Made by a program: the position numbers and the translations under genes
The notes under the pieces: model-generated
Seen by the model: the letters and a program-made list of their open reading frames with translations, nothing else
Told to the model about the DNA's origin: nothing
The model's database searches: none
Assembly (NCBI GenBank): GCA_964442255.1
Contig: CAYTYC010000001.1
Coordinates: 66,526 to 106,707 of the forward strand
DNA from: an uncultured archaeon
Lineage (GTDB): Archaea > Iainarchaeota > Iainarchaeia > Iainarchaeales > 1-14-0-10-31-34
Direction of reading: 5' to 3'
DNA: 40,182 nt
Shown here: one piece after another, positions 3,171 through 40,182 of the stretch
Layout of the letters: every line of letters starts with the position of its first letter
How positions within the stretch are numbered: the stretch's first letter is position 1

Positions 3171-3884
3171 GTGCAGCCTATCACTTTATACAAAACCATC
3201 CTAAAAGAATTCGGTGAACAGAACTGGTGGCCTGTAACAGAACCGGGAGAAACTGCCCCAACCTATAAAAAAAGAAAATCGCTTTCCACTGCACAAAGGT
3301 TTGAAATCTGTGTTGGCGCAATCCTGACGCAAAACACTTCCTGGCTGAACGTAATGAAGGCGCTTGAGAACCTGAATAAAGCGAAAATGCTTTCCCCGCG
3401 AAAACTGGGTTCAGCAAGAAAGCGGAAGACAGCTTCGCTCATAAAGCCTGCGGGATACTTCAACCAAAAGGCGGGCTACCTGAAAAATTTTTCCGCGCAC
3501 CTGGAAAAAAATTACGCAGGCAAACTGGAGGAGTTATTCAAAAAGCCTTCCGCTGAGCTGAGGAAAGAGCTTCTCTCAATTAAGGGAATTGGGGAAGAAA
3601 CCGCGGACTCCATAATCCTGTACTCGGCCCAAAAGCCCGTGTTTGTGGTGGACGCTTACACGAAAAGAGTGCTTTCAAGGTTGCGTGGGGAAAGGCAAAC
3701 CAACAGCAGTTATGTAGAAGTTCAAAGTTTTTTTGAGTCCCGCCTGCCAAAAAATGTGAAGCTGTTCAATGAATTCCACGCCCTGTTTGTCGCATTGGGA
3801 AAGGATTTCTGCACCAAAACCTCGCCCGGATGCTTCGCCTGCTGCCTGCGCAGAAACTGCGCTTTCCCTTCAGTCAAACCTTAA
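3171..3884 (+). CDS. endonuclease III-related HhH-GPD protein
   Basis: GAILTQNTSW, LLSIKGIGEETADSI, VVDAYTKR and a C-terminal 4-Cys cluster (CTKTSPGCFACCLRRNC). Confidence 0.9.
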   Translation: MQPITLYKTILKEFGEQNWWPVTEPGETAPTYKKRKSLSTAQRFEICVGAILTQNTSWLNVMKALENLNKAKMLSPRKLGSARKRKTASLIKPAGYFNQKAGYLKNFSAHLEKNYAGKLEELFKKPSAELRKELLSIKGIGEETADSIILYSAQKPVFVVDAYTKRVLSRLRGERQTNSSYVEVQSFFESRLPKNVKLFNEFHALFVALGKDFCTKTSPGCFACCLRRNCAFPSVKP

Positions 3885-13745: not shown

Positions 13746-14762
13746 TTAAAGGTTTTTCCCTAAAAATTTTTTTTTCCCCGCCTTCATCAGTTCGCATGCA
13801 GAGTTTTCCGGAAACTTTTCGTTTAACGCCATCCCCGTGCCTTTTTCCATTCCGCCGTAAATTTTGTGGATGTTCGGCAAAAATTCAATGTAAAAATGCA
13901 CGTGCTTTTCTTTTTCATTCCATGAATGGAACACGGCATTATAGGGGAGGTCGCCGAAAAGGCCGAAGTAAGCATTCAATGTTTGCAGGTAAATGCCCGC
14001 AAGGTGCCTCAACTCTTTTTCGGTAAACTCCATCAAACACCGCTTATGCCTTTTGCTGACAACCCATGTTTCATGCGGCCAGAAGGATGCATAAGGGGCA
14101 ATTACCGTGAAAGAAGGGTTTTCAAACACCTTTCTTTCGCTTTTCCTTTCCTTTTTTTCAATTTCGCAGTAAACGCATTTCCCTTCTTTGGAGTAAAATT
14201 TTTTTGCGCCTTCCTCCTCTTTCCTTGCCGCCGGCGGAACAAATGGCACGCCAACTATCTGGGAATGTTCGTGTGAAAGCGAGGCCCCGCATTCTTTTCC
14301 ATGGTTTTTGAACAGCACCACGCGTTTTATTCCCTTCATTTTCCACAGTGCTTTTTCCCTTTCCCTGTAAACCTTCAGCAGTTCAAGCATTTCCTTTTGG
14401 CTTAACTCCTTCAGCAGACGGGAATGATTGTTTGTTTCCACAATTATTTCATGCAAGCCGAACGCGGGGGAATGCGAGTAAAAATTTTTTCCTTGTTCCC
14501 TGTGCTCCAATTCCTGGTCCAGTGCGCTAAACTTGTTTTCAAAAACCCTGTGCTTCCATTTTTTTCCGTCAATTACCGCCAGTTTTTCAGGGGGAGTCAT
14601 TCCCTCATTCCCCAAGCAAAAGGGGCAGTTCTTTTGCCTCGCTTTTTTCCCTTTTTTCGTTTTCCAGCGCTCTTTTCTGAAGTCCGTCGGCCTGTTTGCC
14701 CGTTCCTCCGAGTAAATAACCCATTCATCCAAAAAATAGTGTTTCCTGAACTCTTTGGCCAT
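13746..14762 (-). CDS. galT: galactose-1-phosphate uridylyltransferase family protein
   Basis: RANRP, CPFC.GNE, ENKFSAL, HEIIVE, FKNHGKECGASLSHEHSQ (HxHxQ). Confidence 0.9.
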   Translation of the reverse strand: MAKEFRKHYFLDEWVIYSEERANRPTDFRKERWKTKKGKKARQKNCPFCLGNEGMTPPEKLAVIDGKKWKHRVFENKFSALDQELEHREQGKNFYSHSPAFGLHEIIVETNNHSRLLKELSQKEMLELLKVYREREKALWKMKGIKRVVLFKNHGKECGASLSHEHSQIVGVPFVPPAARKEEEGAKKFYSKEGKCVYCEIEKKERKSERKVFENPSFTVIAPYASFWPHETWVVSKRHKRCLMEFTEKELRHLAGIYLQTLNAYFGLFGDLPYNAVFHSWNEKEKHVHFYIEFLPNIHKIYGGMEKGTGMALNEKFPENSACELMKAGKKKFLGKNL

Positions 14763-14814
14763 AACTTAATTAGCCCCTGTGCCTTTTAAACCTTTTCAGC
14801 GCAAAATTCTTTTT

Positions 14815-15153
14815 TCATCTTGCCCTGGCTAAAGCTTTCTCTTTTCTTTCCCCTATTTTTTCCAATGCTTTTTTCATCAGCATGTTGTCCAGTTCGATTA
14901 ACTCCTGCACCACAGGGTTTTCGGTGTTAAGCCTGTACATCTCGGCTTTGCCTACTTTTCTTGTGTTGGTTACGACTTTTGTCTTTTCAAGCCTTTCCCA
15001 AAAGGTTTCCAGGGTGTTCCATGAAACGTCCGCCTGCCTGCAGATGTCTTTTTTGCCGTAGTCGAATACGTCGTTTTCAATCAAAAAGTCCAATACCCTG
15101 ATTATCGGGTAGTCCCCAAAGAACTCCACGAAAAGGGATTTGTCTTCCGCCAC
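14815..15153 (-). CDS. winged-helix DNA-binding protein
   Basis: FGDYPIIRVLDFLI...KKDICRQADVSWNTL...RKVGKAEMYRLN; GTG start at 15153 inferred. Confidence 0.75.
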   Translation of the reverse strand: MAEDKSLFVEFFGDYPIIRVLDFLIENDVFDYGKKDICRQADVSWNTLETFWERLEKTKVVTNTRKVGKAEMYRLNTENPVVQELIELDNMLMKKALEKIGERKEKALARAR

Positions 15154-15218
15154 TCCAATCACGTTAGATAATAGACGATGAATTAAATTTAAATATTTTA
15201 CTCTTGGTGTTTCAATTA

Positions 15219-15722
15219 ATGAAACTTTCTTCTTTCGGGATTCGGAGGCGGATTCTGCGCAAAATGGTGCGGCACAGCCTTTGGGGCGGAAAGCATACGG
15301 CTTTTGACAACATCCCAAAAGGCTTTCCAAAGGAGTTGTGGAGAGAGGTAAAGAAAGAGCTGGAACAGCTTATAAGAGAAGGCTTGGTCGTGAAAAAATT
15401 TCCCGGTCTGGTGTNNNNNNNNNNNNNNNNNNNNNNNNNNNNNNNNNNNNNNNNNNNNNNNNNNNNNNNNNNNNNNNNNNNNNNNNNNNNNNNNNNNNNN
15501 NNNNNNNNNNNNNNCGCTCCATGTTTCGTCTCTGGAACAGCTTATAAGAGAAGGCTTGGTCGTGAAAAAATTTCCCGGTCTGGTGTTCCGCTCCATGTTT
15601 CGTCTCTGGAACAGCTTATAAGAGAAGGCTTGGTCGTGAAAAAGCCTACTGGTTATGGGCTGCACGTTTCACTTAATGTGAGAATGAAGGCGGAGATTGA
15701 GGGGATAATTTTTGGGGAATGA
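15219..15722 (+). CDS. small basic winged-helix-like protein of about 85 aa, disrupted here by a repeat and N gap
   Basis: Collapsing the repeat gives MKLSS...WGGKHTAFDNIPKGFP...ELEQLIREGLVVKKPTGYGLHVSLN...IFGE. Confidence 0.65.
   Translation: MKLSSFGIRRRILRKMVRHSLWGGKHTAFDNIPKGFPKELWREVKKELEQLIREGLVVKKFPGLVXXXXXXXXXXXXXXXXXXXXXXXXXXXXXXXXXXAPCFVSGTAYKRRLGREKISRSGVPLHVSSLEQLIREGLVVKKPTGYGLHVSLNVRMKAEIEGIIFGE
15360..15643 (+). repeat. 74-bp-period tandem repeat flanking an assembly gap (probable artefact)
   Basis: 38-nt gene segment at 15360, 15532 and 15606, separated by the same 36-nt sequence; 100 Ns at 15415-15514. Confidence 0.8.
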
Positions 15723-15754
15723 TTTGGTGGACGCGGAAAGAAACGGGCTTGAGA

Positions 15755-16075
15755 TTATTTGTCCGGCTTCGGTGGCTGTTTTTTCTTCTTTTTGTCGTAA
15801 ACCAAAATTGACAGGCAGGCCAGCAAGTAGGAAACTACAGGGTATACAACCATATGTAAAATAAAAACAGCAAATTGGGGTTCAGAATAAAATTTTTGTT
15901 CAAAAATCAACCACAAAAGTCCGCCCAAAAATAGGAAAGGGGCTAAAAAAGGCATTGGATACCAGCCACTTCCTCCGGGGTCAATGTACATAAATATGGG
16001 AAAAGGCGCGACAAAAAAAATTATTAAAAACGCCGAAATTTTTCTTCCATTTGGCTTCAGAAAGTCAAGATTCAT
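15755..16075 (-). CDS. small membrane protein
   Basis: Three hydrophobic segments, FLKPNGRKI start, Lys-rich tail. Confidence 0.7.
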   Translation of the reverse strand: MNLDFLKPNGRKISAFLIIFFVAPFPIFMYIDPGGSGWYPMPFLAPFLFLGGLLWLIFEQKFYSEPQFAVFILHMVVYPVVSYLLACLSILVYDKKKKKQPPKPDK

Positions 16076-16134
16076 TCTAACTTATATATAAATAATCTTT
16101 CAGCCAAACATTTCCTGAAGAAAGGAGGGATTGA

Positions 16135-16650
16135 ATGTCTGCAGAAGGAAAAAAGGTTTTGTTTGTGATTGCCCCGGAAAATTTCCGGGACGAGGAATTG
16201 TTTCACCCGAAAGAGGAACTGGAAAAGGCTGGCGCAAAAACAGTTATTGCTTCGCTTTCAAGGGGGGAAAAAACTGGAATGCTTGGCGGGAAGGCTGTAG
16301 CGGAACTTTCCGTTGATGAAGTGAATCCTAAGGAATTTGACGCAATCGTTTTCGTGGGCGGAACCGGAAGCAGCACTTATTTCCAGAACCCAAAGGCGCA
16401 TGAACTGGCGAAAGCGTTTTTTTCTGCCGGAAAGCCGACTGCCGCTATCTGCATCGCTCCAAGCACTCTTGCAAACGCGGGCCTGCTGAACGGCAAAAAA
16501 GCCACCTCCTATCCAAGCGAAAAAGGAAACCTGGAAAAAAGGGGAGCAAAGTTCACAGCACAAGGGGTTACAGTGGACGGAAAACTGATTACGGCAGACG
16601 GTCCGAAATCTGCAAGGGAATTCGGCAGGAAAATTGCGCAAGCACTTTAA
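16135..16650 (+). CDS. DJ-1/PfpI family protein
   Basis: FRDEELFHP, FDAIVFVGGTG, AAICIAP, ITADGP; GGAGG upstream. Confidence 0.93.
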   Translation: MSAEGKKVLFVIAPENFRDEELFHPKEELEKAGAKTVIASLSRGEKTGMLGGKAVAELSVDEVNPKEFDAIVFVGGTGSSTYFQNPKAHELAKAFFSAGKPTAAICIAPSTLANAGLLNGKKATSYPSEKGNLEKRGAKFTAQGVTVDGKLITADGPKSAREFGRKIAQAL

Positions 16651-16656
16651 AAAAGG

Positions 16657-16734
16657 TGGTGGGAGAGGAGAGATTTGAACTCTCGACCTCCCGGTTATCA
16701 GCCGGATGCGCTAACCAGGCTGCGCCACTCTCCC
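16657..16734 (-). tRNA. tRNA-Ile(GAU), CCA encoded
   Basis: Reverse complement GGGAGAG-TGGCGCAGCCTGGTTAGCGCA-TCCGG-CT-GAT-AA-CCGGG...GTTCAAATC...CTCTCCC-A-CCA. Confidence 0.96.
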
Positions 16735-17006
16735 ACAATTATGCGTTAAATTGCTGAAACTAAATAATTCGCCAGAATAAGCTTTAAAACAGAATCCGTA
16801 AATCCCTTCTCGGGTTCATCAGACTAAATTCTGCCAGGAAAGGAATAAAAAGCTAATGAAGCCGCGAGGCAGAGTTCTGCCGCTCTTGAACGGCTGGTGA
16901 ATGCCGTTTCGCGCGGCTTTTAAGGAAAACATTGCCGGAAGCCATAAAGTGCCGGCGCTCCCGAGCGCCAGGAATCTACTTAATTCTTTTCCAGCACAGT
17001 TTTGGC

Positions 17007-17453
17007 ATGGGTCTGCCCAAACTCTTCAGAAGAAAGCCTTCCGCGCTTCACGCTTACAGGGGAATGCGGGTAAAGCCCTTAAGCCTGGGCGGTTTTCTGG
17101 GTTTAAGGGATAACCCCTTAAACAGTTCACTTCCGCTGATTGCAAGGAAACGCATTGTTCCTGCCAGGGGCGGGGAAAAAATTGTTTTCTCTTTGCATGA
17201 AACGGCCCCTGAAAGGGACTGGCTTGGGAGAAAGGTTTTGGCTGAAAGAGGCCCTGTTTCAAGCGTGAGCCTGTTTGTTCCGGCAGACAAAAGCAGGCCA
17301 GCCGCAGGCGGGGCATTCACTGCCCCAAAATACCAGCGCATGGGCCTGGCAAAGCATTTAAGCAGCTTGAGGGAAAACGAGCTAAGCGCAAGAGGCATAG
17401 AAAATTTTTTGCCTGAAGGCAGAATGCGCCAGAGGGGAGAGCCAAAAAGATAG
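17007..17453 (+). CDS. basic orphan with GNAT acetyl-CoA-binding motif
   Basis: FTAPKYQRMGLAKHL fits GNAT motif A; MGLPKLFRRKP N-terminus. Confidence 0.55.
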   Translation: MGLPKLFRRKPSALHAYRGMRVKPLSLGGFLGLRDNPLNSSLPLIARKRIVPARGGEKIVFSLHETAPERDWLGRKVLAERGPVSSVSLFVPADKSRPAAGGAFTAPKYQRMGLAKHLSSLRENELSARGIENFLPEGRMRQRGEPKR

Positions 17454-17568
17454 GCTGCATAACCTTTAAATCTTCTTCAACCCTATTTTTATTGTGCATC
17501 TTGGGTGCAGCCCCGTAGCCGGGGAACCTTTTAAGAAAAGGTTCGCCAAAAAACAGGCTGCGGAGCAC

Positions 17569-17811
17569 AGCCCCGTAGTCTAGCGGCCAAGGATGCAGGG
17601 CTTTGGAAATCAGAACCTGCGGTTCCGATACCTCCCTTAATTTTCGGGGGAGGCGCAGAACCAGGGATCCGGTACCTCCCTTAAAACTTTCGCGCGAAGT
17701 TTGCACGCGGATACGTCAAGGGTTTTCCCTTTGGTCAACCCTTTATAAATATTTGTGGGAGGTTCTGGTTGAAGAAACCCTGTGACGGGAGTTCGAATCT
17801 CCCCGGGGCTA
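17569..17811 (+). tRNA. tRNA-Gln(UUG) with a 170-nt intron at 37/38 (17607-17776)
   Basis: Exon 1 AGCCCCG...CAGGG-CT-TTG-G; exon 2 A-CCCTG...GTTCGAATC...CGGGGCT-A; BHB formed by CTTT/GAAG helix, two 3-nt bulges and 11-bp helix 17608-17618/17760-17770; A1-U72 pair typical of archaeal tRNA-Gln. Confidence 0.93.
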
Positions 17812-18417
17812 TTGCTTTATTGGCGCTATTTTCTTAACAAGCCTTATTTTTTCTGGAAAGGTGTCCCTTGGAAACCTTTCTATTGCTTTTAGGAGTTCCC
17901 CTTCGTTTGGGCTCCGTTCAAGCCCCAGTGAATTGAAAAGCCGCCTTGCCGCCGGGCTTGATTTGAAGCGTGGCTCCAAAATTCCGCCGTGCTTCAGGAA
18001 GAAAGCTATAATGCTCCTGTTTTCCACATTCACCCAAACCCGCCTTACGCCGCTTAACGACAGATGCGTTTCCATGAGCCTCCACATTACTTCCCCTAGC
18101 CCTTTCCTTTGATATTCTTTTTCGATAAGAAAAATTGGCGCCCTCTTTGGACTGCCGCCAACAAATGAAGCGGAGTTGCCTTGTCTCCGCACTTCAAGCA
18201 TTCCGATGTCTTCAGGCCGTCTTTCGGAAAAAACCGTTATGTGGTTTGCGGAGGGGTCCAGTTCAAGCAAAATTTTTTCTCCACCCAATCTATGCGAAAA
18301 GTACGCCCAAGAGGGACTCGCTGTAAAGGCTCTTTTCCCAATTGATATTTCTCTTCCTTCAGGCTTAACTTGTTTCAAGCCCGCTTGCCTGATCCTGTTC
18401 CAACGAAAAGCCGGCAT
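17809..18417 (-). CDS. GNAT-family acetyltransferase-like orphan
   Basis: IEKEYQRKGLGEVM (motif A), N..IIAFFLKHG (motif B-like); Arg-rich N-terminus. Confidence 0.7.
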   Translation of the reverse strand: MPAFRWNRIRQAGLKQVKPEGREISIGKRAFTASPSWAYFSHRLGGEKILLELDPSANHITVFSERRPEDIGMLEVRRQGNSASFVGGSPKRAPIFLIEKEYQRKGLGEVMWRLMETHLSLSGVRRVWVNVENRSIIAFFLKHGGILEPRFKSSPAARRLFNSLGLERSPNEGELLKAIERFPRDTFPEKIRLVKKIAPIKQ

Positions 18418-18472
18418 CTGATTATGCTAGTCCACTAAGCGGCTTAAATTTGTTTTGTTTTAATGATACTTT

Positions 18473-19132
18473 ATGATTAAGGCTGTTTTGTTTGACTGGA
18501 ACGGAACATTGTTTGATGACGTGAAAGCCGCGTTTGCGGGCGCAAATTTTCAGATAAAACAACTCGGCGGAAAAGAGATTTCCTTTGAGCAGTACAGAAA
18601 CACTTTCACAATCCCCCTCCCCAAGTTCTTTAAGGCAAACAATGTTCCAACCAATGAATACCTTAAAAACCTGGAAAAATACCAGCAGGATTTCTTCGAG
18701 TTTTACAGCGAAAAAGGGGAGAACTGCTGCCTGAGGAAAGGGGCAAAAGAGGTTTTACGGGAATTAAAAAAACGCGGCATAAAGGCCGCGGTTTTAAGCG
18801 CGCACCGAAAAAAGGACATCCTGGAAAAGCTGGAGGAATTCGGCATAAGCCATTTAATTGACGCGGTGGAGGCGGTGGAAGGAAACATCACGGGAATGGC
18901 GAAAGGAAAAGAAGCTGACAGGGCACTGAAGGAACTCGGCGTTAAGGCTGAAGAAGCGATCATTGTGGGCGACGGCCTGCAGGACATTGAGGCAGCAAAA
19001 GAACACGGAATGAAGGCAATAAGCATTGGGGGCGGATTCATTTCAGGCGAAAGGCTGAAAAAAGCGGGAACAGACTATTTTGTGAAGGATTTGGGGGAAG
19101 TGCTGGAAATAGTGGAAGAAATTAATTCTTGA
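18473..19132 (+). CDS. HAD family phosphatase (phosphoglycolate phosphatase-like)
   Basis: LFDWNGTLFDD, VLSA, IVGDGLQDIEAA. Confidence 0.88.
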   Translation: MIKAVLFDWNGTLFDDVKAAFAGANFQIKQLGGKEISFEQYRNTFTIPLPKFFKANNVPTNEYLKNLEKYQQDFFEFYSEKGENCCLRKGAKEVLRELKKRGIKAAVLSAHRKKDILEKLEEFGISHLIDAVEAVEGNITGMAKGKEADRALKELGVKAEEAIIVGDGLQDIEAAKEHGMKAISIGGGFISGERLKKAGTDYFVKDLGEVLEIVEEINS

Positions 19133-19165
19133 GCAGCCTTTTGTTGCAAAATCTTTTTCCTTTCT

Positions 19166-20014
19166 TTAATTCATTTTTAGCTTGAATATCAATATCGGCA
19201 TTTGTCCCGGGATTCCTTGAAACGAGTACTCGTATGATTTCACTGATTCTAGTTCCAAACCCACTTCATTTGCTATTCTTATCATGTGTTCTCTTGGTAT
19301 TTGGTGTGCTTTTAGTTGTTCTGGTGTAGGCTGTTGGTCTCGTTTGAGACCTGAACCTTTTTTGTTGTGGTGCGGTATCCAGCCGACAACAAAACGAGAA
19401 GTTGTCCTTTCTTTAAGCAATTTTTTTTGCTGTTCAAGAGCTTGTTTCAATCCACTCTTTCCAGCCCAATGTATTGCATTAAACGTTACTACAAGGTCAT
19501 ATGAATGCTGTGGAAGTCCGGGATTTTCAAGGGTTCCAACGCTGAAATTTACTTGGGCGTCTCCGCATTCTTTTTTGATTCTTTGTGCTTCTCTTAATGT
19601 TCCTGGTGCAAAATCAGTTGCGTCTATTCTTGTTTTAGGAAAGCTTGTAGCTGCAAAAAGTTCTTGCGTGCCACTTCCACAACCAGTGCTTGCAACCCTA
19701 AACTCGGGTCCAATTCTTTCAGCCATTTTGCGCATTTCCGTTAGTAATGTTTTGCTTATTGCTCTTTCTGTCCCTTCCTTTTCCAAATACCTGGGGGCGA
19801 ATTTTGCGGTACTGGAGAAAAAGCGGGCTTCATCTTTTGGCAGGTGTCTTCTTTTTGCTCTAAGAAATCTAGTGATAGGAAACAATTGAACTGGTTGATG
19901 TCTATGGATAAAATCTATGATGTCTTTATAATTTCTGCCAAGCCTTCCGTTTACCTGTGCTCTCCGTTTGGGTATTGTTTTGAGGTCTCTAAAACTCTGT
20001 ATAGCTTCACTCAT
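19166..20014 (-). CDS. class I SAM-dependent methyltransferase with long basic N-terminal extension
   Basis: VASTGCGSG, ATDFA, SYDLVVTFNAIHW. Confidence 0.8.
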   Translation of the reverse strand: MSEAIQSFRDLKTIPKRRAQVNGRLGRNYKDIIDFIHRHQPVQLFPITRFLRAKRRHLPKDEARFFSSTAKFAPRYLEKEGTERAISKTLLTEMRKMAERIGPEFRVASTGCGSGTQELFAATSFPKTRIDATDFAPGTLREAQRIKKECGDAQVNFSVGTLENPGLPQHSYDLVVTFNAIHWAGKSGLKQALEQQKKLLKERTTSRFVVGWIPHHNKKGSGLKRDQQPTPEQLKAHQIPREHMIRIANEVGLELESVKSYEYSFQGIPGQMPILIFKLKMN

Positions 20015-20162
20015 TATTCTTTTTGTCCCCCTAAGAAAATTAACGTAAGGATGAATTTAAAGGTTTGTTTCTTTATGTTTTTTGAGTATAAGTTGGGACT
20101 AGACGTTATCCAAGGAAAGTAATAAAAATAGTTGAAGAACTAAATAGTTAGGTGAAAAACTG

Positions 20163-20360
20163 ATGGGCTTAATGGACAGGTTTAAGGCAAAAAAAGAGGA
20201 AATGGAGAAGAAGAAAGCCGGGGAAAGCGCTCCGGAAGGGAAATACGATGAAGCCTGCGCTTTGTGCGGGGGAGGTGGAACAGAAAAAAAGTGGGCTGGG
20301 CAGTACTGGCACAAAAAATGCTACAGAAGGGCAAGAAAAGTCGGGAAAGGAATGATTTAG
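20163..20360 (+). CDS. small Zn-finger-like protein
   Basis: CALC...WHKKC metal ligands; GGTGA upstream. Confidence 0.7.
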   Translation: MGLMDRFKAKKEEMEKKKAGESAPEGKYDEACALCGGGGTEKKWAGQYWHKKCYRRARKVGKGMI

Positions 20361-20468
20361 AAACCCCTTTCCGGGAATCCCGCCTGTTTCAATGGGCGGA
20401 AGAGGGGTTTTCATAAGCAGTTTACGAAAAAAAAAATTTGGCGGATTTTTAACCCGCCGTAGTTTAAT
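20355..20468 (+). repeat. 114-bp dispersed palindromic element, copy 2
   Basis: Matches 8107-8220 with one mismatch; fills the interval between two convergent stop codons. Confidence 0.95.
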
Positions 20469-21141
20469 CTAAAACTTCTGTTTCCCTGTCTTTTCCCACT
20501 ATAACAGTGCAGTCCCTTGAAAAAATTCCGTTGGCCTTGACTCCGGGCGTTGCATCCAAGCGCTTCTCCAATTCCTCCGGTGCAGGGACGCCATCCGGAA
20601 AATCAAGATAGGCTATCAGGTTTTCGCTTTCGCTCACTTTCCTTTCACCCGCGTCATCCTTCACAAACTTTTTTTCGCAGTCCAAATCCGCAAACTCATT
20701 GAAAACAAAATCCCTTTTATCCTGTTCAACCTCAATCAGCACAGGTTTGGAGAGCCGCTCCACAATCTTTCCTTCATCAACCACGACCACAAACTTTTCC
20801 GCCCTGTAATCCACTTCCTTTTCCTTCAAAAACGCGTACAGCGTGTTTCCTTTAATCAGCCTCTTTTTTCCGTCCACTTCATCCGCGCCATCCACCGCCA
20901 AATCAATTTTCTTTGCTTTCTCAACCGAAACCAGTTTCAGCCCGACTTTTTCGGCTAGCGCGGCGCTTTGTTCGGAGGTGGAAACGCATTTTACCCCAAG
21001 CCTTGATTTTTTGTTTTTTTCCCCCAAAAGCCTGATGAACTCTTCTGCCGTGCTCCCTGAACCCAGGCCTACAGTCATTCCCTTTTTCACGTACTCCAGC
21101 GCCTTTTTTGCCGCGTTAACTTTCTGATCTTTTTTCCCCAT
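20464..21141 (-). CDS. rpiA: ribose-5-phosphate isomerase A
   Basis: VGLGSGST, AVDGADEV, LIKG, KEKEV. Confidence 0.92.
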   Translation of the reverse strand: MGKKDQKVNAAKKALEYVKKGMTVGLGSGSTAEEFIRLLGEKNKKSRLGVKCVSTSEQSAALAEKVGLKLVSVEKAKKIDLAVDGADEVDGKKRLIKGNTLYAFLKEKEVDYRAEKFVVVVDEGKIVERLSKPVLIEVEQDKRDFVFNEFADLDCEKKFVKDDAGERKVSESENLIAYLDFPDGVPAPEELEKRLDATPGVKANGIFSRDCTVIVGKDRETEVLD

Positions 21142-21143
21142 TT

Positions 21144-22049
21144 TTATTCCCCCAAAGCGTAGGCCGCGGCTCCCGCGGCCACAGAATAATCCCCATAACT
21201 TGCTTTAATTATTTTGGTTTTGGAGCGGAAAGCCTTGACAATATGCAGGTCAAGCCTTTTTTTTGCTTTATTTAAAAGCAGCCGGCTGTTGCTTAAGCCT
21301 CCCCCCAAAACAATTGCGTCAGGGGAAAAAATGTTCACAAGGTTTCCCAAACCAACTGCAAGATAACCGCTTAATTCCTCAATTGTCTCCTTTGCGGCCA
21401 TGTCCCCTTTTTTGGCTTCCCTGTCAATGTCTTTGGGGATTAAATCAGGGTAATTGGATAAAGAGCTTTTTTGTTTCCGCATTTTGCTTTTTGCGGTTTC
21501 CAGAAAAGCTTTTCTGCTCACGTATTCCTCCCAGCAGCCCCTGTTTCCGCAGCCGCATTTTTTTCCCCCAAAAAAAACGCACAAGTGCCCGAATTCCCCT
21601 CCCGGAAGAATTTTCCTGTCAAGCACGATTCCTCCCCCGAGTCCCGTTCCAAGGGTGACGCCCAAAACAAGCCTGAACTTTTTTGCCTTTCCCCACACTG
21701 ATTCCCCCCAAGTCATCAGGTTGGCGTCGTTTTCAACGAAAACCTTTTTGTGCAGATTTTTTTCCAGAAAACTTTTCAGGTTTGTTCCCTTTAAGGGCTT
21801 CAGGTGGGGGGCAAACAATATTTTTCCTTTTCCGTCAACAACCCCCGCAAACCCAACTCCAATCCCTTTAACCTTTTTGTTTTCTGGAAGCACTTCCCCG
21901 ACGGCCTTTAAAACGTTTTCCAGGGCCCTCTTTTTTTTCATGCCAGCCCCCGTTTTTGCCTTGAATTTTTTAATGATTTTTCCGTTTTCACCGGCAAGCA
22001 CTGCCTTGATGTTTGTGCCGCCGATATCCACTCCAACGGCCAAATTCAT
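21144..22049 (-). CDS. ROK family sugar kinase (glucokinase-like)
   Basis: VDIGGT, ENDAN, LGTGLGGG, GEFGH, CGCGNRGCWE. Confidence 0.93.
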   Translation of the reverse strand: MNLAVGVDIGGTNIKAVLAGENGKIIKKFKAKTGAGMKKKRALENVLKAVGEVLPENKKVKGIGVGFAGVVDGKGKILFAPHLKPLKGTNLKSFLEKNLHKKVFVENDANLMTWGESVWGKAKKFRLVLGVTLGTGLGGGIVLDRKILPGGEFGHLCVFFGGKKCGCGNRGCWEEYVSRKAFLETAKSKMRKQKSSLSNYPDLIPKDIDREAKKGDMAAKETIEELSGYLAVGLGNLVNIFSPDAIVLGGGLSNSRLLLNKAKKRLDLHIVKAFRSKTKIIKASYGDYSVAAGAAAYALGE

Positions 22050-39947: not shown

Positions 39948-39976
39948 CTTTTCTGCCCCCAAAATCCTACTGTTTT

Positions 39977-40134
39977 GGGGCCGTGGTGTAGCCTGGTCCA
40001 GCATCGGAGCTTTGGGTCAGCCATTTCGTAGGCTGGGTCCGAGATATGTGGGGATTTCCCTTTGGTCAATCCCCAAGAATATGCTTTTGGCTGCAAAAGA
40101 GCTCCTGACCCCGGTTCAAATCCGGGCGGCCCCA
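39977..40134 (+). tRNA. tRNA-Pro(UGG) with an 83-nt intron at 37/38 (40017-40099)
   Basis: Exon 1 GGGGCCG...GGAGC-TT-TGG-G; exon 2 A-GCTCC...GGTTCAAATCC...CGGCCCC-A; BHB formed by TTTG/CAAA helix, 3-nt bulges and outer helix CAGCCA/TGGCTG. Confidence 0.94.
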
Positions 40135-40182
40135 TTTGCCGGCTTCTGCCGGCAGTGCAGGGAGCCATGCTAGCGCATGGTT

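Follow-up and report, generated by a model that had tools for sequence, protein, structure and literature searches.

Small non-autonomous repeats of bacteria include REP, BIME, and REPIN sequences, the Rickettsia palindromic elements, Correia elements, and MITEs. In archaea, the origin of tRNA introns is unsettled, and a 2026 preprint, in the part of its text drawn on here, still calls the route by which these introns arrive open. In Thermoproteales, tRNA intron families common to different tRNAs have been described in terms of "intron transposition" (Sugahara 2008 and Fujishima 2010, both as cited in an excerpt of bioRxiv 10.64898/2026.10.13.758758). Further, the accessible portion of a study of Nanoarchaeum equitans describes tRNA-linked, intron-borne, "mobile" C/D box sRNAs (PMC3491384), and, in Caldiarchaeum, a 1.8-kb recombinase-encoding element was proposed to disrupt a tRNA-Thr gene (PMC3293823, in the sections used here). 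We compared these systems with an element found in the introns of two tRNA genes within a 40,182-nucleotide stretch of DNA (the window) from an uncultured archaeon, and no description of this element was found in the literature searched, the coverage of which left out most subscription-journal papers. We propose that the element is probably a small mobile insertion sequence of one DPANN order, carried as a passenger in tRNA introns.

With introns allowed, ARAGORN placed one gene at window positions 17569–17811, with a 170-nt intron (C1:84094–84336), and one at 39976–40135, with an 83-nt intron; default ARAGORN and the Rfam tRNA model detected neither and found only a tRNA-Ile in the window. 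ARAGORN labeled the first gene "Stop tta"; parsed by hand, it is a tRNA-Gln(TTG) on the + strand, with its 5′ exon (nt 1–37) at 17569–17606, its intron at 17607–17776, and its 3′ exon (nt 38–73) at 17777–17811. The second gene, parsed in the same way, is a tRNA-Pro(TGG), also on the + strand, with exons at 39977–40016 and 40100–40134 and the intron at 40017–40099. Both introns lie between nt 37 and 38, the canonical archaeal position. Bulge-helix-bulge motifs could be drawn by hand for both genes: in tRNA-Gln, a CUUU/GAAG central helix with GGA and AAA bulges and a AAUCAGAACC/GGUUCUGGUU outer helix, and, in tRNA-Pro, a UUUG/CAAA central helix with GGU and AGA bulges and an outer helix of CAGCC (40018–40022) with GGCUG (40089–40093). 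The unconstrained ViennaRNA fold of the tRNA-Gln intron retained the long outer helix, and that of the tRNA-Pro intron favored local hairpins over the outer helix.

The original prediction held that a 15-mer is common to the two introns, and TTTCCCTTTGGTCAA was found exactly at 17724–17738 and at 40055–40069, both on the + strand, these being its only two exact occurrences in the whole window. When up to two mismatches were allowed, the window held three matches, a number reached in 0 of 100 shuffles. The third match, at 3863, carries two mismatches. The feature is real and statistically solid. Its sequence context was also as predicted: the hairpin is preceded by GATAYGT in both introns (GATACGT from 17710 and GATATGT from 40043) and followed by AATAT (17748–17752 and 40078–40082), and CTTTGG is present in the anticodon arms of both host tRNAs (in GGGCTTTGGA and GAGCTTTGGG).

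The 15-mer is the tip of the second hairpin in a non-coding two-hairpin element of ~70–78 nt; the unit takes in an upstream hairpin and a linker in addition to the hairpin described in the original prediction. As defined by pattern searches and blastn, the order is hairpin 1, a 7-nt linker, a RATAYGTC box, hairpin 2, and an ATWAATAT box. Hairpin 1 has a 6-bp stem and a 6–7-nt loop. The stem of hairpin 2 is 8 bp long and usually leads into a UC/UC internal loop, beyond which come a 2-bp stem and a loop of 3–4 nt; the two hairpins formed unaided in 11 of the 12 copies folded. In the tRNA-Gln intron (all features on the + strand), hairpin 1 (AAACTT/TCGCGCG/AAGTTT; alignments A1 and A2) lies at 17684–17702, and the linker GCACGCG and the conserved box GATACGTC, with near-invariant columns in A1, occupy 17703–17717. 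Hairpin 2 of this copy, supported by covariation, spans 17718–17743, with arms AAGGGTT (17718–17724) and AACCCTT (17737–17743) and an apical part, TTCCCTTTGGTC, that contains the UC/UC internal loop and a CC/GG mini-stem; the AT-rich 3′ box TATAAATATT, conserved in A1, A2, and A3, follows at 17744–17753. The tRNA-Pro copy extends over 40018–40083 on the + strand (covariance model R1 match at C1:106537–106610, 60.7 bits, E 2.8e-12; model R2, E 5.1e-11) and consists of hairpin 1 (CAGCC/ATTTCGTA/GGCTG, 40018–40035), the linker GGTCCGA, the box GATATGT (40043–40049), hairpin 2 (GGGGATT/TCCCTTTGGTC/AATCCCC, 40050–40074, with arms at 40050–40056 and 40068–40074), and the 3′ box AAGAATATG (40075–40083). 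The hairpin 2 stems of the two copies thus differ yet pair, in agreement with the original prediction. The tRNA-Pro intron consists mostly of the element. In the tRNA-Gln intron, the element is the last of three repeat modules, the others being a copy of a second repeat family (ATCAGAACC-NNN-GGTTCCGATACCTCCCTT, 17609–17638, + strand, by pattern search and blastn) and a partial second copy of it (17663–17682). The 18-nt core of this second family has 21 matches in the genome with up to three mismatches, of which ~4 look like chance matches in coding DNA, and positions 1–32 of the tRNA-Gln intron have blastn matches on 14 other contigs.

A covariance model had been suggested as a check on the motif, and, in the model that we built (R1), all 16 pairs covary: compensatory change was seen at 6/6 pairs of helix 1, 8/8 of helix 2, and 2/2 of the apical 2-bp helix. 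Pairing was observed in 91.6% of cells, compared with 60.8% after shuffling and 31–51% when the partner was slid, figures that are flattered because the alignment (43 family matches, giving 42 distinct rows) was fitted to the model. A third mini-hairpin in the linker (ACG/YGT) was rejected, with 53.2% of cells pairing against 52.1% in shuffled rows and no covariation. Among the 1239 paired cells, we counted 30 G-U and 23 A-C pairs and hence no strand signal; because G-U barely exceeds A-C, the pairs cannot tell selection on RNA from selection on DNA, nor one strand from the other.

In the source genome (93.8% complete), the 12-mer core has five exact copies: the two of the window, one in a tRNA-Ser(GCT) intron on contig C15, and two on contig C17, which are tandem units behind tRNA-Leu(GAG). 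R1 gave 21 matches at E ≤ 1, of which 17 had E ≤ 1.6e-5 (strong copies), so the further occurrences in the genome for which the prediction had recommended a search do exist. Each of the 17 strong copies is associated with a tRNA gene and lies on its strand, 8 within introns and 9 behind the genes, at up to 392 nt. A tabulation of contexts and host anticodons, likewise recommended, placed the intronic copies in Gln-TTG, Pro-TGG, Pro-CGG, Ser-GCT, Arg-TCT, Gly-CCC, Glu-CTC, and Glu-TTC; not all of these eight intron-bearing hosts are labeled correctly by ARAGORN. Five of the nine trailer copies either directly adjoin the 3′ ends of their tRNAs or follow them at 76 nt (Leu-GAG, Val-GAC, Val-CAC, Gly-GCC, and one more), and the remaining four sit further along trailer arrays. 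Hairpin 1 starts at intron nt 1–2 in the intronic copies and directly after nt 73 in the adjoining trailer copies. The original prediction spoke of a selected, intron-borne module; the module is indeed conserved, covarying, and structured, but it is not specific to introns, as 9 of the 17 strong copies lie behind tRNA genes. We also note that, in mosaic copies of the source genome, the hairpin 2 allele with the 15-mer occurs together with four or more different hairpin 1 sequences, and a near-identical hairpin 2 allele across differing hairpins 1 points to recent spread or to gene conversion and away from a long residence.

Related genomes, in which a search had also been advised, carry the family as well. 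R1 matched in 8 of the 9 genomes of the taxonomic family to which the source organism belongs, and one genome of this family (G008, 99% complete) has zero copies. R2, built from 43 copies and applied at E ≤ 1e-4 to 151 sampled genomes of the phylum under Infernal's stricter filters, with which weak copies are lost, matched in 31 genomes, with 0–19 copies in each genome sampled; all 31 belong to the same order or are more closely related. Of the 43 family-level copies, 10 are intronic, 9 directly adjoin the 3′ end of a tRNA, 8 are located further downstream, 5 are 31–129 nt upstream, 3 are on the opposite strand, and 8 have no ARAGORN tRNA in the locus. Among more distant genomes of the order, 19 of 38 copies had no ARAGORN tRNA in the locus examined (1.3–3.1 kb), and copies in relatives also occur in promoters and in the first ~40 nt of genes, at gene starts in both orientations. 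The loop varies among relatives, where CATTTCATTC, CACTTCGTTC, CGCTTACGCTC, and similar sequences replace the 15-mer loop, and the loop of the source genome recurs in the tRNA-Ser(GCT) intron and in tRNA-Leu trailers. The suggestion that the loop mimics an anticodon loop therefore fails, because loop sequence and host tRNAs both vary. The element occupies the same tRNA-Ser(GCT) intron position in three genomes of two families, with compensated stems, which could reflect selection on structure in place.

Copies away from tRNA genes are flanked by direct repeats of the surrounding sequence, which are of variable length (11–41 nt); the first base of hairpin 1 is typically the last of the upstream repeat, and the downstream repeat starts 0–14 nt past the 3′ box. 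A flanking-repeat score of at least 11.5 was obtained for 21 of 79 scorable copies, compared with 4 of 399 random sites of the source genome, although one of the 21 (L024:1117) is a repeat of a neighboring module rather than a target duplication and 2–3 more are far from the element ends. In a comparison with 200 shuffles each, 22 of the 79 copies beat all, or all but one, of the shuffles. Flanking repeats within 90 nt are absent from most copies in introns or abutting tRNA 3′ ends. Two loci of the complete genome G009 carry identical 72-nt cores, with unrelated flanks and with repeats of 17 and 41 nt. Further, fragments of tRNA ends follow trailer copies (TTCGAATCCTCCACCCCGCA on C17 and TTCAGTCCGCCCA in relatives) in the same pattern as the flanking repeats: the 3′ 20-mer of tRNA-Leu(GAG) recurs after each unit on C17, and contig C5 carries a repeat of 14 nt from the 3′ end of tRNA-Leu(TAA).

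The start of the ABCE1 gene offers filled and empty versions of one site. Genome G151 has an R2 copy with a ~41-nt duplication at this position, and the site is empty in at least nine relatives. Inserts in G095, G154, G094, G126, and G153 share hairpin 1 and the linker, differ in their bodies, and have duplications of 18–40 nt, the insert of G094 representing the same event as that of G154. In G090, which belongs to the genus of G095, the site is empty, and the uninterrupted sequence is identical to the upstream repeat copy of G095. Three independent events at ABCE1 left a duplication that starts precisely with the start codon, ~20 nt past a TATA-like box, which is the place where a leaderless transcript would begin. 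One insertion in G153 duplicates a promoter segment, and, in one gene that apparently has a leader, the duplication begins 8 nt ahead of the start codon.

The tRNA-Gln(TTG) gene also differs across the family. With its 5′ exon as the query, orthologs were found in 3 of the 8 other family genomes. The gene is intronless in G006 and G007, which represent two other genera, and, in G008, of a third genus, it has an unrelated intron of ~215 nt; in G001, the intron is 48 nt and consists of the second repeat module only, compared with 170 nt and three modules in the source genome. For tRNA-Pro(TGG), a 40-nt pattern with up to three mismatches matched only the source genome within the family. Contigs of two DNA runs compared with positions 16500–18500 revealed no polymorphism, the loose ends being other repeat copies. 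The only joint, from 17591 to 17783 with 21 other letters in between, was rejected as an empty site; it represents the paralogous intronless tRNA-Gln(CTG). For window positions 14000–22000, a search among RNA runs returned none that contain this DNA.

We compared the element with described classes of RNA and mobile DNA. The recommended comparison with Rfam gave no match to it: Rfam 15 at gathering thresholds returned only the tRNA-Ile in the window and only tRNAs in nine related loci, and, for both tRNA loci in E-value mode, matches at E ≤ 5 were partial tRNA-like hits (tmRNA and mascRNA) and scattered chance hits, all below the gathering score of each family. RTGATGA, TGATGA, and CTGA are all absent from both introns, as had been claimed, and the assignment to C/D box sRNAs was rejected, neither intron having a C (RUGAUGA) or D (CUGA) box. 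No terminal inverted repeats were evident when the first 22 nt of 80 copies were compared with the reverse complement of the last 22 (mean 3.91 compared with 3.88 for shuffled sequences); a MITE was rejected on this ground and because the flanking repeats are 11–41 nt rather than of fixed length. An IS200/IS605-derived or REP/RAYT-type element was likewise rejected, as target duplications are present and no link to a Y1 (HUH) transposase was seen. Y1 transposase was detected in 11 of 31 element-carrying genomes and 25 of 120 non-carriers, counts that are descriptive only because related genomes are not independent, and Y1_Tnp was missing from the multicopy genomes G009, G059, G146, and G001. 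The source genome does have Y1 transposase genes, and, at its IS200/IS605 locus, the best R2 match scored 10.9 bits, with ends that do not fit the model. RVT_1 was not found in the source genome or in 4 of 5 multicopy genomes, including the complete G009, and, by this RVT_1 search, a retroposed element needing reverse transcriptase was rejected. The source genome has one tyrosine recombinase gene, for which no link to the element was found. An integrase att scar was rejected overall, the repeats of tRNA ends holding only for the trailer arrays of C17 and C5. In the genomes examined, no transposase, integrase, or reverse transcriptase was tied to the element, and variable duplications of 11–41 nt match no standard transposase.

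Three explanations other than a mobile insertion can be weighed against these observations. We consider it rather unlikely that the host selects the element as a small RNA or protein-binding module linked to tRNAs and expressed from the tRNA promoter; its 5′ end would then be cut by the splicing endonuclease or RNase Z, and the linear or circular RNA released would act in trans or aid pre-tRNA folding. Such a role is suggested by the shared strand of all 17 strong copies and by hairpin 1 starting at the 5′ splice site or just past nt 73, by conservation of the single-stranded boxes, and by compensatory change that keeps the structure, including that at the tRNA-Ser(GCT) position in three genomes of two families; the tRNA-linked, intron-borne C/D sRNAs of Nanoarchaeum would be a precedent, on the part of PMC3491384 used here. 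Folding by hand adds a possible role in splicing. In tRNA-Pro(TGG), tRNA-Pro(CGG), and tRNA-Gly(CCC), the 5′ arm of hairpin 1 has two possible partners, the local 3′ arm and a second copy of that arm at the 3′ end of the intron, and the distal partner immediately precedes the 4 nt that pair with the anticodon loop, so that the hairpin 1 arm can form the outer helix of the splicing motif; between Pro(TGG) and Pro(CGG), three strands change together (CAGCC/GGCTG/GGCTG compared with CAACC/GGTTG/GGTTG). A host-selected RNA is harder to reconcile with a patchy spread (31 of 151 genomes, 0–19 copies), with the 99%-complete genome of the same family that has no copy, with gene-start copies that occur in both orientations and have target duplications, with the lack of a strand signal in the paired cells (30 G-U, 23 A-C), and with the absence of any Rfam match or C/D boxes.

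That the element is a portable promoter, with ATWAATAT as an archaeal TATA box and the hairpins as insulators or terminators, appears highly improbable. The 3′ box does resemble the TATA-like boxes upstream of tRNA genes of the source genome, and, two of the five tRNA-Gln loci of genus g2 (L063 and L047) have the element end 31 nt upstream of the gene, a spacing similar to that of the native TATA-like box before the tRNA-Pro of the source genome (28 nt); at the other three loci, however, it ends 91–129 nt upstream. A promoter makes no sense in the eight intronic copies, the box is just 13 nt from the ABCE1 start codon, and no consistent gene follows the trailer copies. Still less credible, and in our view very nearly negligible, is the idea that the copies are gene-less scars of tyrosine-integrase insertions at tRNA 3′ ends, with the repeats as att sites. 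The tRNA-Leu(GAG) 20-mer after each C17 unit, the 14 nt of tRNA-Leu(TAA) on C5, and the single tyrosine recombinase gene would fit such scars, but the repeats of copies away from tRNAs are unrelated to one another and 11–41 nt long, which a single attP cannot explain, and the difference of the repeats from site to site argues against a single att site. The units, moreover, are merely 90–290 nt, the intronic copies sit at 37/38, away from tRNA 3′ ends, and no full-length element was found in which hairpin 1 and the 3′ box enclose an integrase gene.

We therefore return to the small mobile insertion, which best fits the data among the three options raised in the original prediction (a protein-binding site, an anticodon-loop mimic, and a mobile mini-element). 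What the data show directly is the family with its structure and contexts, together with flanking repeats, empty sites, and a spread of copy numbers; for this reading, we infer in addition mobility at the DNA level, splicing out of the element together with the intron, and passenger status. Insertions would have settled repeatedly in places that tolerate additional sequence: precisely at the 5′ splice site of 37/38 introns, precisely past the tRNA 3′ end, in tRNA leaders, and, in relatives, in promoters and the first ~40 nt of genes. Outside introns, insertion would double 11–41 nt of the target, so that the interrupted tRNA end or gene start stays intact; within introns, the tRNA splicing endonuclease, cutting at the bulge-helix-bulge, would remove element and intron together, and the element would not need to have a function itself. 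That the same 15 nt occur in differing stems would then reflect recent shared ancestry or gene conversion within the genome rather than from a tie to the host tRNAs. The location of all 17 strong copies on the tRNA strand would not be predicted for a strand-blind transposon, and junctions that coincide exactly with sites of RNA processing, namely the 5′ splice site and nt 73, likewise speak against a plain DNA transposon. A more specific and tentative proposal, which we hold to be doubtful, is that the element belongs to an undescribed class of mobile DNA that has no element-encoded transposase or canonical reverse transcriptase and duplicates terminal segments of mature RNAs. In tRNAs, the duplicated segments would run from the T-loop to nt 73 at the 3′ end and from nt 1 onward at the 5′ end, and in leaderless mRNAs they would begin at the start codon; insertion would be templated by RNA ends or coupled to transcription. 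The shared strand, the junctions at processing sites, and the ABCE1 duplications from the start codon hint at such a route; the promoter duplication in G153, the duplication that starts 8 nt before a start codon, and the two orientations at gene starts argue against it.

On the best reading, the 15-mer connects the content of tRNA introns with a small mobile element and not with a task peculiar to the two tRNAs. One family occurs in three settings: it makes up the body of the canonical introns of eight tRNA genes within a single genome, it lies in the trailers and leaders of other tRNA genes, and it occurs in relatives as insertions that look fresh, with target duplications and matching empty sites. 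Within one taxonomic family, tRNA-Gln(TTG) shows an intronless stage, a one-module intron, and a three-module intron, and intron gain and growth by a small mobile element thus become directly testable in these archaea. If the element does represent an undescribed mobile class, new archaeal tRNA introns, and the growth of existing ones, would come directly from it. We also note, as a caution, that conservation and stem covariation between introns need not imply a function for the host.

Like the small non-autonomous repeats of bacteria, the element is short, multicopy, hairpin-forming, non-coding, patchily distributed, and tolerated near or in genes; unlike them, it has no terminal inverted repeats and combines two unlike hairpins with conserved single-stranded boxes, and it has long, variable duplications instead of fixed ones of 2–10 bp and no association with Y1 (RAYT-type) transposases. 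With the Caldiarchaeum model of tRNA disruption, as outlined in the sections of PMC3293823 considered here, it shares the targeting of tRNA genes, the duplication of tRNA fragments, and a link to intron gain, but the units described here are gene-less, are 70–290 nt long, and duplicate a target that differs at each site. The resemblance to the sRNAs of Nanoarchaeum, on the available part of PMC3491384, lies in a structured unit directly behind a tRNA or in a tRNA intron, in hints of mobility, and in a layout in which tRNA 3′ processing would make the 5′ end of a unit behind a tRNA; unlike those C/D sRNAs, the element has no C/D boxes or Rfam match, and its variable parts are paired stems and not single-stranded guides. 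As in the intron families of Thermoproteales, within what the excerpt of the citing preprint conveys, related sequence occurs across tRNA types, here in Gln, Pro, Ser, Arg, Gly, and Glu introns. Unlike those families, as far as that excerpt describes them, the element also lies behind and before tRNA genes and at the starts of protein genes with duplications of 11–41 nt, all of its intronic copies are at the canonical position 37/38, and the clade that carries it is DPANN.

The tRNA-Gln(TTG) gene in the window is also accompanied by repeated sequence outside the approximately 75-nt, probably mobile two-hairpin element whose second hairpin is tipped by the 15-mer. Its opening bases, CAGCCCCGTAG, recur 60 nt upstream (window positions 17508-17578), and a hairpin, GAACCTTTT/AAAAGGTTC, lies between the two copies at 17524-17544. 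The tRNA-Gln(CTG) gene on contig C42 of the same genome (G000) is preceded by a matching leader, and in the related genome G001 the counterpart of the CAGCCCCGTAG repeat measures 15 nt. The leader looks like a further small insertion that duplicated the 5' end of the tRNA.

Within the tRNA-Gln intron, modules 1 and 2 belong to a second repeat family, AATCAGAACC-NNN-GGTTCCGATACCTCCCTT, found at 17609-17638 and 17663-17682 of the window and in approximately 17 more copies across the genome. The repeat folds into a small hairpin with a tail behind it that resembles an anti-Shine-Dalgarno sequence, and the window copy is similar to the 3' end of the G000 16S rRNA, GGGGAACCTGCGGACGGATCACCTCCTT. The family also forms tandem arrays downstream of tRNA-Leu(TAA) and, in G001, accounts for the entire 48-nt tRNA-Gln intron.

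In three genomes of genus g2, the two-hairpin element itself is located upstream of tRNA-Gln genes, ending 31 nt before the tRNA at two loci (L063 and L047) and 91-129 nt before it at three others (L055, L043, and L056). The 31-nt spacing places the element's AT-rich box at the position expected for a TATA box. The element may have been co-opted as a promoter. A third match to the 15-mer, TTTCCCTTCAGTCAA at window positions 3863-3877, differs from it by two mismatches and was matched by neither covariance model of the element (R1 or R2).

Repeats also lie downstream of tRNA genes. The tRNA-Pro trailer opens with a GC-rich hairpin cassette (TTTGCCGGCTTCTGCCGGCAGTGCAGGGAGCCATGCTAGCGCATGG...; 40135-40182, the window ending within the cassette), which recurs in arrays downstream of tRNA-Arg(TCG) on contig C9 and tRNA-Trp on C24. 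Downstream of tRNA-Leu(GAG), a tandem array on the minus strand (G000:C17:22800-23360; loci L014 and L024) has a unit composed of the element, an GGTTCCGATGCCTTCC hairpin, an AACCTTTTTT/AAAAAGGTT hairpin, and, at its end, the final 20 nt of the tRNA; a 100-N scaffold gap falls within the array, whose true number of units may therefore differ from that assembled.

Inserts are also found in a protein-coding gene: the initial ~40 nt of the essential gene ABCE1 are a recurrent insertion target in family f4 (L108, L110, L113, L115, L116, and L124). Five inserts at codons 6-13 are independent, with L113 and L116 sharing a single event. At five of the six loci, translation beginning at the upstream copy of the start codon would find an open frame across the insert and a stop within -4 to +4 nt of the real start codon, a layout that would be compatible with termination-reinitiation. 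Genome G151 carries an insert that forms an in-frame extension.

Across the whole G000 genome, ARAGORN, with introns allowed, predicted 42 tRNA genes. Several received a wrong anticodon label; for example, Gln was annotated as "Stop," Pro(CGG) as Ser, and Ser(GCT) as Ala. Introns were predicted in 23 genes, and 16 of these introns span 80-259 nt, an unusually great length for archaea.
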